A stretch of 37,403 bases of DNA, taken from a virus. Taxonomy: Duplodnaviria; Heunggongvirae; Uroviricota; Caudoviricetes. The position numbers and the translations under genes are program-made. The stretch spans positions 1 through 37,403 of the IMG/VR virus record IMGVR_UViG_2529293140_000005. The stretch is one strand, 5' to 3'. Positions 3,539 to 36,395 of this stretch are shown here, piece after piece (position 1 is the first letter of the stretch; each line of letters begins with the position of its first letter). A model generated the notes under the pieces. It saw only the letters and a list, made by a program, of their open reading frames with translations, did no database searches and was not told where the DNA came from.

Positions 3539-3979
3539 ATGAAAAAACTAACCTTTGAAATTCGATCTCCAGCACATCAGCAAAACGCTATTCACGCAGT
3601 ACAGCAAATCCTTCCAGACCCAACCAAACCAATCGTAGTAACCATTCAGGAACGCAACCGCAGCTTAGACCAAAACAGGAAGCTATGGGCCTGCTTAGGT
3701 GACGTCTCTCGTCAGGTTGAATGGCATGGTCGCTGGCTGGATGCAGAAAGCTGGAAGTGTGTGTTTACCGCAGCATTAAAGCAGCAGGACGTTGTTCCTA
3801 ACCTTGCCGGGAATGGCTTTGTGGTAATAGGCCAGTCAACCAGCAGGATGCGTGTAAGAGAATTTGCGGAGCTATTAGAGCTTATACAGGCATTCGGTAC
3901 AGAGCGTGGCGTTAAGTGGTCAGACGAAGCGCGACTAGCTCTCGAATGGAAAGCGCGATGGGGAGATCGGGCTGCATGA
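3539..3979 (+). CDS. ninB: NinB recombination protein
   Basis: MKKLTFEIRSPAHQQNAIHAVQQILPDPTKPIVVTIQERNRSLDQNRKLW... matches lambda NinB as recalled. ATG at 3539 with a G-rich RBS. Confidence 0.85.
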   Translation: MKKLTFEIRSPAHQQNAIHAVQQILPDPTKPIVVTIQERNRSLDQNRKLWACLGDVSRQVEWHGRWLDAESWKCVFTAALKQQDVVPNLAGNGFVVIGQSTSRMRVREFAELLELIQAFGTERGVKWSDEARLALEWKARWGDRAA

Positions 3980-4503
3980 CTATCAAATCAAATACGCCAG
4001 CACACGACAAGGACTGCTGGCAAACGCCGCTTTGGCTTTTTGATGCACTGGATATTGAGTTTGGATTCTGGCTGGATTCGGCAGCGAGCGACAAAAATGC
4101 TCTGTGCGCTCACTGGTTAACTGAGGCCGACGACGCGCTAAATTCTGAGTGGATAAGCCACGGTGCAATCTGGAATAACCCACCGTACAGCAATATCAGG
4201 CCGTGGGTGGAAAAAGCCGCTGAGCAGTGCATACAACAGCGACAGACGGTAGTTATGCTTGTGCCAGAGGATATGTCAGTCGGATGGTTCAGCAAGGCTC
4301 TGGAGAGTGTCGACGAAGTTCGCATTATCACTGATGGGCGGATTAATTTTATCGAACCATCGACAGGGCTGGAGAAGAAGGGAAACAGCAAAGGCTCCAT
4401 GCTGCTGATTTGGCGACCGTTCATCAGTCCTCGACGAATGTTTACTACCGTATCCAAAGCGGCATTGATGGCGATCGGGCAGGGCGTCAGGAGGGCGGCA
4501 TGA
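3976..4503 (+). CDS. Phage DNA N6-adenine methyltransferase
   Basis: NPPY motif (WNNPPYSN); about 175 aa; nin-region position. Confidence 0.7.
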
Positions 4504-4682
4504 GGCGACAGCGACGAAGCATCACCGACATAATCTGCGAAAACTGCAAATACCTTCCAACGAAACGCTCCAGAAATAAACGCAAGCCAATCCCAAAAGA
4601 ATCTGACGTAAAAACCTTCAACTACACGGCTCACCTGTGGGATATCCGGTGGCTAAGACATCGTGCGAGGAAAACAAGGTGA
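4500..4682 (+). CDS. ninE: NinE
   Basis: [60 protein letters not shown], near-identical to lambda NinE as recalled. ATG overlaps the upstream stop. Confidence 0.8.
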
Positions 4683-4858
4683 TTGACCAAAATCGAAGTT
4701 ACGAACAAGAAAGCGTCGAGCGAGCTTTAACGTGCGCTAACTGCGGTCAGAAGCTGCATGTGCTGGAAGTTCACGTGTGTGAGCGTTGTATATATGAATG
4801 CTTAAATATGGTGGAACATAATGAGAAATATAAGCAACATAGACGAATTAAGAAATAA
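4679..4858 (+). CDS. ninF: NinF with a replaced C-terminus (disrupted by the downstream insertion)
   Basis: GTG start overlapping the ninE stop. (M)[34 protein letters not shown] matches lambda NinF; the sequence diverges after that point, at about nt 4785. Confidence 0.55.
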
Positions 4859-5327
4859 ATTATCATATGATGATGTTTTAGGTGTACTTAGATGGAAAGT
4901 GTCTCCTTCTAATAATGTTAAGGTTGGCAGTGTTGCTGGTTACATTAGGAGTGATGGTTATAGGATGTTAACTATCGATGGTGTAATTACTTATGCTCAC
5001 CACGTTATATGGATGATAAATAATGGTGAGATTCCATTAGGGTATAAAATTGATCATATAAATGGAGTAAGGTCAGATAATAGGCTATCTAATCTTCGAT
5101 TGGTTACACACCAACAGAATGCACAGAACCAAAAGAGAAAAATAACCAATTCGTCAGGAGTGACTGGAGTATATTTCAATAAAGAGAGATGTAAGTGGAT
5201 TGCGAATATATGCGTAGATGGGCGCACCAAATATCTTGGAATATTTGCTAGCATCATTGACGCTATTGCAGAAAGGAAGAGGGCAGAAAAAGAACTGGGT
5301 TTTCATGAAAACCATGGCAGACCATAA
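4821..5327 (+). CDS. HNH homing endonuclease with an AP2-like DNA-binding domain
   Basis: HNH motif region YKIDHINGVRSDNRLSNLRLVTHQQNAQN. C-terminal GVTGVYFNKERCKWIANICVDGRTKYLGIFASIIDAIAERKRAE resembles an AP2 domain. AT-rich relative to its flanks. Confidence 0.75.
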   Translation: MRNISNIDELRNKLSYDDVLGVLRWKVSPSNNVKVGSVAGYIRSDGYRMLTIDGVITYAHHVIWMINNGEIPLGYKIDHINGVRSDNRLSNLRLVTHQQNAQNQKRKITNSSGVTGVYFNKERCKWIANICVDGRTKYLGIFASIIDAIAERKRAEKELGFHENHGRP

Positions 5328-5388
5328 CTGCGCAGAACTGATGAGCGATCCGAATAGCTCGATGCACGAGGAAGAAGACGATGGCTAA
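5328..5388 (+). other. Displaced 3' remnant of ninF
   Basis: Reading 5329..5388 gives [19 protein letters not shown]-stop, the lambda NinF C-terminus as recalled. It is out of frame with, and separated from, the ninF 5' part. Confidence 0.5.
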
Positions 5389-5992
5389 ACCAGCGCGAAG
5401 ACGATGTAAAAACGATGAATGTCGGGAATGGTTTCACCCTGCATTCGCCAATCAGTGGTGGTGCTCTCCAGAGTGTGGAACCAGGATAGCACTCGAACGA
5501 CGAAGCAAAGAACGCGAAAAAGCGGAAAAGGCAGCAGAGAAGAAACGACGACGAGAGGAGCAGAAACAGAAAGATAAACTTAAGATTCGAAAACTCGCCT
5601 TAAAGCCCCGCAGTTACTGGATTAAACAAGCCCAACAAGCCGTAAACGCCTTCATCAGAGAAAGAGACCGCGACTTACCATGTATCTCGTGCGGAACGCT
5701 CACGTCTGCTCAGTGGGATGCCGGACATTACCGGACAACTGCTGCGGCACCTCAACTCCGATTTGATGAACGCAATATTCACAAGCAATGCGTGGTGTGC
5801 AACCAGCACAAAAGCGGAAATCTCGTTCCGTATCGCGTCGAACTGATTAACCGCATCGGGCAGGAAGCAGTAGACGAAATCGAATCAAACCATAACCGCC
5901 ATCGCTGGACTGTCGAAGAGTGCAGGACCATCAAGGCGGAGTATCAACAGAAACTTAAAAAACTGCGAAACAGCAGAAGTGAGGCTGCATGA
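5381..5992 (+). CDS. ninG: NinG (Rap) recombination protein
   Basis: [41 protein letters not shown]... matches lambda NinG as recalled. Confidence 0.85.
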
Positions 5993-34998: not shown

Positions 34999-36195
34999 TT
35001 ACTCGCCTGCGCGACCATCAATGTAATCAGCCCACCACTGCATCATTTCTCTGCGCTTATCGAGATACTGAGCATGGTTGTAAATCCCGCGCACAGAACC
35101 GCCGTTGGCATGTGCCAGTTGCACTTCAATAGCATCAGCAGGCCATTCGTTCTCGTTCATAATCGTGCTGAATTCATGCCTGAATCCGTGACCGCTTTCC
35201 AGACCCTCATAGCCGATTTGTTTGATCACAAGTAGCACCGCGTTCTCGCAGATTGGCTTCTTCTTATCGTTGCGCCCGGCAAAAACAAACTCTGATACTG
35301 GTTTGGTGATTGAGCTTAGCGTAGTGAGAAGTTCAACCACCTGGTCTGACATCGGTACTACATGGATCCTTCGTCCTTTCATCACACTGGCGTCGATGGT
35401 GATAATCCTGTTTTCAAAATCGACGTTCTTCCATAGCATGGAACGAAGCTCTTTCGTTCTTAGGGCAGTGTAGCGTAAAATCTTGGTGGCAATGAGCGAT
35501 ACGATACTTCCTGAAAATGTTGCCAGTGCTTTGTTGAATGCCGGGATCTGGTCTGCAGGAAGAAACGGGAAGTTCTTCTTGCGGTATCCCTTCATGGCGT
35601 CAGCAAGGTCAGGTGCCGGGTTATATTTAGCCCTACCGGTGACAATAGCGTAACGGAAAACCTCGCCGCATCTTCTGCGTGCTTTGTTGGCTCGCTCCAT
35701 TGCACCGCGATCTTCAAATCTGCGGATTACTTCCAGCAGTTGCATCGGCTCAATATCCTGAATCTCAAGACCGCCGATGATGGGTAAAATGTCGTCATCA
35801 AACATTTTTGCAAGTTCAGTTGCATAGCCTACAGACCAGACTTGCTTCTTGTGCTCGTACCATTCCTTGTAAATCGCACTAAAGGAATTGTTGTTAGACG
35901 AAGCCTTTTTCGCCTTTACCGGATCGATACCAACCGAGATGTCTTTCCTCGCAGTCCATGCTTTATCCCTTGCCTCCTGCAAAGTCATAAGCGGATATTT
36001 TCCGACAGTCAGGATTTTCTCCTTACCGTCAATCTTGTAGCGAAGCTGCCATACCTTTTTCCCGGATACAGGGACATAAAGGTACAGGCCATTACCATCG
36101 AGAAGGCGATATGGTTTTTCTTTCGGCTTTGCTGCTTCAATCTGCTTAACGGTGAGCATGGGTAAAAATCCGGTGGGTAAAATTATTTTATCCAC
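34999..36195 (-). CDS. intS: Tyrosine site-specific integrase (P4-type)
   Basis: 398 aa; C-terminal catalytic motifs (HGFRHEF..., final Y region); adjacent to a tRNA 3' end. Symbol assigned from the argW/yfdC context as recalled for E. coli. Confidence 0.85.
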   Translation of the reverse strand: MDKIILPTGFLPMLTVKQIEAAKPKEKPYRLLDGNGLYLYVPVSGKKVWQLRYKIDGKEKILTVGKYPLMTLQEARDKAWTARKDISVGIDPVKAKKASSNNNSFSAIYKEWYEHKKQVWSVGYATELAKMFDDDILPIIGGLEIQDIEPMQLLEVIRRFEDRGAMERANKARRRCGEVFRYAIVTGRAKYNPAPDLADAMKGYRKKNFPFLPADQIPAFNKALATFSGSIVSLIATKILRYTALRTKELRSMLWKNVDFENRIITIDASVMKGRRIHVVPMSDQVVELLTTLSSITKPVSEFVFAGRNDKKKPICENAVLLVIKQIGYEGLESGHGFRHEFSTIMNENEWPADAIEVQLAHANGGSVRGIYNHAQYLDKRREMMQWWADYIDGRAGE

Positions 36196-36320
36196 TTTTT
36201 ACCCGTCATGGAGTGCGGCTGTCAACGATCTGACGCGAACCATGACGAACTGCGAATCTACGGAAGGCTTGATATTCAGGGGATTTTGCGGACTGGTACG
36301 GATGGGCGCGAACTGATAAA

Positions 36321-36395
36321 TGGTGTCCCCTGCAGGAATCGAACCTGCAATTAGCCCTTAGGAGGGGCTCGTTATATCCATTTAACTAAGAGGAC
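36321..36395 (-). tRNA. argW: tRNA-Arg (anticodon CCU)
   Basis: Reverse complement reads GTCCTCTTAGTTAAATGGATATAACGAGCCCCTCCTAAGGGCTAATTGCAGGTTCGATTCCTGCAGGGGACACCA: cloverleaf with GGTTCGATTCC T-loop, CCT anticodon, 3' CCA. Confidence 0.85.

Follow-up and report, generated by a model that had tools for sequence, protein, structure and literature searches.

The window, as we call the whole stretch of 37,403 nucleotides (nt) analysed here, covers positions 1 to 37,403 of IMG/VR record IMGVR_UViG_2529293140_000005, a virus of the Caudoviricetes, and its ninF gene is interrupted by a foreign open reading frame (ORF). We propose that a free-standing homing-endonuclease gene, encoding an I-HmuI-like HNH_3 nuclease with a C-terminal AP2-type domain, has probably colonised the ninF gene of lambdoid prophages. 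The insertion lies in an otherwise conserved gene, and it showed strict site specificity, a foreign base composition and an occurrence in many unrelated backgrounds.

The window was aligned with ninF of phage lambda (NC_001416, ninF at 42269-42439), which encodes a protein of 56 amino acids. The two sequences were identical base for base from the GTG start at 4679 through 4784 (...GTGTGTGAGC), after which the window reads GTTGTATATATG... instead. The maximal segment without homology to lambda extended over 543 nt (4785-5327) and had a GC content of 0.33 to 0.35, versus 0.48 to 0.50 in the flanks; just 36 nt of it were non-coding. On the right side, the TAA codon of the endonuclease gene (5325-5327) was followed directly by C-TGC GCA GAA CTG ... 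GGC TAA (to 5388), which is the exact lambda sequence for C38 to G56 in a frame different from that of the ninF 5' part. Hundreds of ninF alleles were identical, or nearly so, to the 106-nt 5' part and the 61-nt remnant, and chance resemblance was thus ruled out. The parts of the occupied gene are as follows.

4679..4784, plus strand: 5' part of ninF, codons 1-35 and the first base of codon 36, identical to lambda.
4679..4858, plus strand: chimeric truncated ORF (NinF') of 59 amino acids, made up of NinF residues 1-35, R36, C37 and a 22-residue tail encoded by the insert.
4785..5327, plus strand: inserted element, 543 nt, GC 0.35, which takes the place of ACTG (4 nt) at the empty site.
4810..4814, plus strand: putative ribosome-binding site GGTGG, read from the sequence, 6 nt upstream of the endonuclease ATG.
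4821..5327, plus strand: endonuclease ORF, 168 amino acids, overlapping the NinF' end by 38 nt.
4992..5126, plus strand: HNH_3 nuclease domain, residues 58-102, with D78-H79...N87...N100/N103.
5154..5300, plus strand: predicted AP2-like DNA-binding domain, residues about 112-160, three strands and then a helix.
5328..5388, plus strand: displaced 3' end of ninF, codons 38-56 and the stop, out of frame with the 5' part.

A reading of the window from its letters alone (the sequence-only reading) had described a lambda-like ninF that diverges into a short unrelated tail, an AT-rich segment of about 540 bp consisting almost entirely of an ORF, and a displaced end of NinF lying out of frame after the stop codon of that ORF. 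The alignment bore out this description. The coordinates 4785-5388 are accurate, the first being where the insert starts and the last where the old stop codon of ninF ends, and the 19 codons and stop at the end matched lambda, whose NinF does terminate in the peptide that had been named. Only the description of the tail needs amendment: the frame diverges after 4784, but the fourth zinc-ligand cysteine is kept, and the tail is not wholly unrelated.

The boundary of the insert was ambiguous by 5 nt. In an alternative and equally valid reading, an insert of 539 nt (4790-5328) separates codon 37 from codon 38, and 4785, 4786 and 4789 are substituted. These three substitutions to the left of the insert convert CAC TGC to CGT TGT, resulting in H36R. 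Since TG at 4787-4788 still matches the Cys37 codon of lambda and TGC follows the insert, the 539-nt reading is the most economical, and the insertion point is best read as lying between Cys37 and Cys38. In 121 empty sites from IMG/VR, the six junction bases were CACTGC (111 sites), TACTGC (6) or CACTGT (4), and CGTTGT was found in none of them, indicating that the junction substitutions travel with the insert. Neither a sigma-70-like promoter nor a terminator was detected in the insert beyond chance, and the sole terminator-like hairpin (4769-4784) was within the expectation from shuffled sequences. The last base of this hairpin, GTTCAC-GTGT-GTGAGC, is also the last before the left junction, and the insert then begins with a T-rich stretch.

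The endonuclease matched Pfam HNH_3 (PF13392) with 70.1 bits against a cut-off of 24.8 (1.2e-19), with residues 58-102 covering positions 2-46 of the 46 in the model, and it also matched phrog_99, 'HNH endonuclease', at 3e-70. The sole sequence match in the Protein Data Bank (PDB) was the homing endonuclease I-HmuI (1u3e) with an E-value of 0.07, in which the D-H...N...N motif was aligned (...VDHKDGNKDNN...N in I-HmuI). When 61 full-length homologues were aligned, D78, N91, R93 and N103 were invariant, and H79, N87 and N100 were conserved in at least 90%. The Asp-His pair expected for catalysis and the Asn residues expected to bind metal in a ββα-metal site are thus conserved. The AlphaFold2 model based on this alignment had a mean predicted local distance difference test score (pLDDT) of 90.9, and I-HmuI again ranked first when the model was compared with the PDB by Foldseek (E 1.4e-3). 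The closest phage relatives of the endonuclease were only about 50% identical, and no deposited phage encoded a protein more than 60% identical to it.

The C-terminal part of the model comprised strands at residues 117-120, 125-132 and 135-142 and a helix at 145-159, and the pLDDT of this block was 90-97. Its Foldseek matches included the AP2 domains of 7et5 and 7et4 (TEM1; root mean square deviation of 1.6-1.8 Å over 49 columns) and 1gcc (AtERF1; 2.9 Å over 57 columns), with probabilities of 0.99-1.0 but E-values of just 0.08-0.5, as well as the Plasmodium AP2 domain 3igm. The gathering threshold of Pfam AP2 (PF00847), 33.3 bits, was reached neither by the whole protein (15.4 bits) nor by the isolated C-terminus (17.3 bits), and 20 of the 61 full-length homologues matched the same model at E<=1e-3, the best of them at 3.2e-8. 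The sequence-only reading had named this ORF HNH-AP2. The HNH_3 half of that name stands above the Pfam threshold, whereas the C-terminus is AP2-like by its predicted fold and by transitive homology, and not by the Pfam gathering score.

We surveyed ninF sites in phages and in E. coli. All 421 phage records that matched the ninF region, including lambda, 434, 21 and SfI, aligned in two pieces and lacked the insert. The ninF region was matched in about 1,700 of 5,426 complete E. coli genomes, at 2,644 places. Of these 5,426 genomes, 45 contained the insert, at 47 places that were all annotated as NinF and of which none was on a plasmid; the carriers include well-known strains such as E2348/69. 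The absence from all 421 phage records and the presence in 45 of about 1,700 ninF-bearing E. coli genomes agree with the sequence-only reading, which had favoured an insertion over a conserved arrangement.

DNA was examined for 36 copies: that of the window, 4 from E. coli loci, 27 from IMG/VR loci and 4 from metagenome loci. All 36 had identical junctions. The module breakpoints around the occupied ninF fell exactly at the ninF start and at the ATG of the next gene. The copies were flanked by 8 upstream and 8 downstream module types and included both N-terminal variants of ninF; they represented 20 distinct combinations of upstream module, ninF N-terminal type, 5361/5365 haplotype and downstream module.

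We found no description in the literature of a ninF insertion with an HNH or homing endonuclease; the pieces of the element have already been annotated by NCBI's pipeline. In several genomes, the HNH gene is marked as a partial pseudogene in the RefSeq annotation (Prokaryotic Genome Annotation Pipeline, PGAP) despite an intact ORF of 168 codons, which in L002 is identical to that of the window. The flagged loci are the following.

L002, 4121-4366.
L004, 4266-4415.
L005, 4259-4408.

Real decay was rejected as the meaning of these flags, since direct translation showed the ORF to be intact at these loci. The flags and the two 'protein NinF' coding sequences are an annotation artefact caused by the overlap of the small ORFs. 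The insertion explains a recurrent annotation oddity, in which an HNH gene, at times labelled a pseudogene, stands between two 'NinF' coding sequences.

Nucleotide diversity (π) was 0.005 in the insert versus 0.033 and 0.018 in the flanking ninF segments, and the window copy was the consensus. The flanks of occupied and empty alleles were equally diverse (0.039 versus 0.040 on the left, 0.024 versus 0.023 on the right) and shared the same common single-nucleotide polymorphisms (SNPs). The near-uniformity of the insert within flanks as diverse as those of empty alleles indicates that it is younger than the surrounding ninF polymorphism, on most of which it sits. Over about 100 nt of ninF, linkage disequilibrium (LD) gave r² values of 0.10-0.14 in empty alleles and 0.00-0.05 in occupied alleles, and because this background is already low, no co-conversion tract is demonstrable from the population data.

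The endonuclease ORF was intact in 35 of the 36 copies, and its SNPs in the population were 14 synonymous and 9 non-synonymous. The decayed copies are listed below; the first is the exception among the 36.

L033, 3001-3505: +1 frameshift.
L170, 1263-2900: E. coli Eco_70239, with an IS3-family element in the endonuclease gene.

A diverged copy was found on a Logan contig (L156), with 81% DNA identity and 85% protein identity to the E. coli type, a synonymous divergence (dS) of 1.18 and a ratio of non-synonymous to synonymous divergence (dN/dS) of 0.07. The endonuclease ORF is under purifying selection. In L156, the gene resides in a diverged ninF (...IHVCEKC/IYVLLN..., where the slash marks the junction) with the same left junction as in the window (TGT/ATATATG), and AGGAG occupies the position of GGTGG in the window. 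The right junction of L156 (1-600) lacks the 27 nt that correspond to the endonuclease stop and ninF codons 38-44, so that the endonuclease reads on through the ninF remnant (old frame ...ADPNGQMLEKDDG, then the stop) and terminates in an ATGA overlap with ybcO. L156 represents a second solution at this site, one that relies on translational coupling.

The ybcO neighbour in L156 was closest to that of Klebsiella aerogenes (92%), and a related prophage (L168) showed the empty arrangement, with ybcO directly after ninF. The same left junction in the diverged ninF, the dN/dS of 0.07 and the empty relative indicate that the association of this endonuclease lineage with the exact ninF position is old, spans diverged hosts and has been kept under strong constraint. 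No more copies of the L156 type were found in GTDB species representatives, or in E. coli genomes and phages searched in distant mode. The JGI metagenomes yielded just four more E. coli-type copies and distant paralogues, and the relatives of the L156 ybcO neighbour had only empty or unrelated arrangements.

For the expression, target, cleavage and drive of the endonuclease, we infer the following course. As no promoter was found in the insert, expression presumably depends on the nin operon transcript. Once the prophage is induced or a cell is infected, the gene would form part of the transcript of the nin operon (delayed-early, pR), and it would be translated from its own ribosome-binding site within the truncated ninF end. 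The protein would then bind the intact ninF of a co-resident insert-free lambdoid genome around codons 34-40 (...GTGTGTGAGCACTGC/TGCGCAGAACTG...), and its HNH ββα-metal site would nick or cut that DNA. Recombinational repair from the insert-bearing genome would copy the gene into the cut ninF. The carrier allele would be immune because the insert splits the site and three adjacent bases differ. The cost to the host is expected to be low: ninF is a small gene of the nin region, the insertion is just after the fourth cysteine of the CxxC...CxxC core, and the remnant would still serve the next gene.

The location inside a coding gene with its old 3' end intact would also suit a self-splicing element, a group I intron or an intein, that restores NinF at the RNA or protein level. 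However, this possibility is effectively excluded by the Rfam searches and the frame analysis. No Rfam family was matched at E<=1 across 4300-5800, and none at the gathering score in the whole window; no more than the 36 nt noted above lie outside the ORF, and the sequence-only reading had rightly set a group I intron aside on this ground. With a stop in the ninF frame at 4856 and a remnant in another frame, no in-frame intein is left, and the Pfam search found no intein domain. An ancestral gene arrangement specific to a lambdoid sub-lineage, with no insertion at all, is hardly more credible. L156 does have the same arrangement in a diverged copy, but the empty-site survey contradicts this explanation and effectively excludes it, as the empty site is the overwhelming state and was found in the diverged lineage too (L168). 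Furthermore, the base composition of the segment is foreign, and the occupied allele stands on the same ninF haplotypes and modules as the empty alleles.

It is unlikely, though less so, that the element is a passive passenger, that is, one old illegitimate insertion that was spread by ordinary lambdoid recombination and whose nuclease was kept for another role such as phage exclusion, defence or DNA processing. Several results point in this direction or weigh against homing. A single junction is common to all copies, and identical junctions would also follow from one ancient insertion spread via ordinary recombination. The mosaic breakpoints exactly at the start and stop of ninF are like those of ordinary lambdoid modules, and LD over about 100 nt is low already in empty alleles, so that the shuffling of insert and flank SNPs needs no nuclease. 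Only about 2% of the ninF copies are occupied, no deposited free phage carries the insert, and in some genomes an occupied copy is found beside several other ninF-matching places that are most likely empty. The purifying selection shows a function of some kind, not that this function is homing. However, the confinement to one site in one gene, in E. coli as well as in a diverged lineage, is what would be predicted for a site-specific element. The family of the protein is known as homing endonucleases (PMC10448857), and its paralogues occur singly as inserts elsewhere in the nin region, a pattern typical of genes for mobile endonucleases.

The NinF' reading frame ends with the stop codon at 4856-4858, and its product keeps all four cysteines of both CxxC pairs (C19, C22, C34 and C37). 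NinF' matched Pfam NinF (PF05810) with 45.7 bits against a cut-off of 27.5, with residues 18-42 covering the full model (1-25 of 25), and its product was identical in other E. coli (P0002, P0007). The new tail was not found in natural uninterrupted NinF alleles. The idea that it was borrowed from a natural ninF allele was rejected, as no uninterrupted NinF carries it. In strain J6 (L002), a 1-nt deletion is located in the ninF 5' part about 26 nt to the left of the junction (window ~4758); this ninF is annotated as frameshifted, and the endonuclease is intact. The J6 deletion suggests that NinF' itself is dispensable.

Two features concern the downstream half.

5305..5388, plus strand: small ORF in the old ninF frame, 27 amino acids; a longer version starts at 5218, and a further ATG is at 5314.
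5368..5372, plus strand: putative Shine-Dalgarno sequence GAGGA of ninG, inside the ninF remnant and 8 nt before the ATG at 5381.

The small ORF opens inside the 3' end of the endonuclease gene and is annotated by PGAP as a second 'protein NinF'. The ninG ATG (5381) overlaps the old ninF stop in the same way as in lambda. Since the remnant bears the likely ribosome-binding site and the overlapping start of ninG, it is presumably needed for ninG irrespective of the fate of NinF.

That the insertion made NinF a working two-piece or re-tailed gene, and not a mere truncation, appears highly doubtful. A re-tailed NinF is consistent with the position of the element directly after the fourth zinc-ligand cysteine and with the new basic C-terminal tail that it adds. 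A two-piece NinF is consistent with the ATG codons at 5305 and 5314, either of which could yield an acidic C-terminal peptide whose translation ends at the ninG start as in lambda. L156, the single diverged copy found, likewise keeps the fourth cysteine and an old ninF frame that is open through the junction. If true, this reading would give a temperate phage its own 'genes-in-pieces' solution and would offer a way into the role of NinF, a protein of no known function.

Other NinF variants (P0009, P0010, P0022 and P0052) were also inspected. In several of them, ...CAELM or ...EEDDE is followed by a fused C-terminal stretch of unrelated sequence, and one has an internally duplicated CxxC...CxxC core. 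To judge from such alleles, recombination in lambdoid mosaics evidently often uses the 3' end of ninF as a joint.

The early-right region of the lambdoid prophage in the window contains cII, an O-like gene and the genes for a DnaB-type helicase, NinB, a Dam methylase, NinE, NinF, NinG, a Ser/Thr phosphatase and Q, followed by the lysis genes. Downstream of the lysis genes are the head and tail genes and then an integrase gene adjoining tRNA-Arg. The neighbouring features are as follows.

3976-4503: Dam-type N6-adenine methyltransferase gene, between ninB and ninE.
5381..5992, plus strand: ninG (rap), named as in the lambda annotation; Pfam NinG 1.3e-90.
34999-36195, minus strand: tyrosine integrase gene, beside tRNA-Arg(CCT).
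36321-36395, minus strand: tRNA-Arg(CCT), beside the integrase gene.

The integrase gene and tRNA-Arg(CCT) (34999-36395) mark one end of the prophage and, probably, its tRNA attachment site. The methyltransferase gene occupies the place of ninC and ninD in lambda; it is one alternative nin module and adjoins the occupied ninF at several further loci too. The neighbours of the endonuclease gene include the phage recombination genes ninB/orf and ninG/rap.

The nin regions of related prophages carry further isolated genes of the HNH_3 type, whose products are 27-49% identical to the ninF-borne endonuclease. They lie at various positions, including the gap between the helicase gene and ninB, the gap between ninF and ninG, and the position before rusA. 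In the window itself, the ninF copy is the only such gene. The genes found elsewhere are listed here.

L003, 2731-3177 and 5721-6209.
L005, 4747-5151.
L017, 4083-4571.
L018, 5694-5987.
L009, 1737-2087.
L169, 1095-1679.

Judging by these genes, several distinct lineages of endonuclease seem to share the nin region as a hotspot.

Much work has been done on homing-endonuclease genes in virulent phages such as T4, T5 and ICP1 and much less on those in temperate lambdoid phages, and the mosaicism of lambdoid phages is usually explained by general or Red-mediated recombination. The ninF element is suited to asking whether nuclease-induced breaks add to module exchange among prophages. Because lambda ninF is an empty site, lambda itself provides a clear target candidate. 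Together with the well-known carrier strains and the adjoining recombination genes, this would make the element a convenient and genetically tractable homing system.

Among the known systems, I-HmuI from Bacillus phage SPO1 (1u3e) was both the best structural match and the best PDB sequence match, with the D-H...N...N motif aligned. However, I-HmuI is intron-encoded, has a C-terminal helix-turn-helix in place of the AP2 domain and is 21% identical to the ninF protein. I-HmuI nicks one strand of its DNA target.

An HNH-AP2 family of homing endonucleases occurs in phages, cyanobacteria and protists and includes the 'IPA-HNH' genes of ICP1, as described in PMC10448857, where the original report is cited. 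The ninF protein resembles these members in having an N-terminal HNH nuclease and a C-terminal AP2-type domain, and in being encoded by isolated inserts scattered in phage genomes (PMC10448857). The ninF protein matches the canonical HNH_3 model, whereas the ICP1 genes are too divergent for it (PMC10448857). Its own AP2 score, in contrast to the family, stays under the Pfam threshold.

The sequence-only reading had likened the element to the free-standing Seg and Mob endonucleases of the T4 type, such as MobE (PMC2790892, PMC2988022). This comparison holds for the lifestyle and fails for the sequence family. As in those systems, a stand-alone nuclease gene lies outside any intron or intein, distinguishes phage genomes that are otherwise homologous by its presence or absence, and is expected to spread by break-induced gene conversion with the carrier allele protected by sequence differences. 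However, the ninF element lies inside a coding gene of temperate lambdoid prophages, whereas the Seg and Mob genes lie between genes of virulent hosts; it encodes HNH_3 and AP2-type domains, whereas Seg proteins belong to the GIY-YIG type, and its homing is predicted from sequence.

In Aeromonas phage Aeh1, nrdA is split by mobE ('genes in pieces', PMC3045599). As in ninF, the 5' ORF then ends in sequence from the element, and the 3' ORF stands apart from it. Both halves of the Aeh1 protein are made and assemble into an active enzyme (PMC3045599). Aeh1 thus has a working split enzyme, whereas the two NinF pieces are predicted ORFs. The 'ShiLan' HNH insertion in an actinophage DNA methylase gene (PMC11855218) likewise places an HNH gene within a coding gene and in a different frame from it, and the stop codon is in the last bases of the insert, with TAAC in both cases. 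The ShiLan insertion is open in the host frame and the methylase reads through it, whereas the ninF frame stops 74 nt into the insert and its downstream part is out of frame. As a probable homing-endonuclease gene in a temperate phage, the ninF element is a clear case, though a fairly ordinary and unsurprising one.

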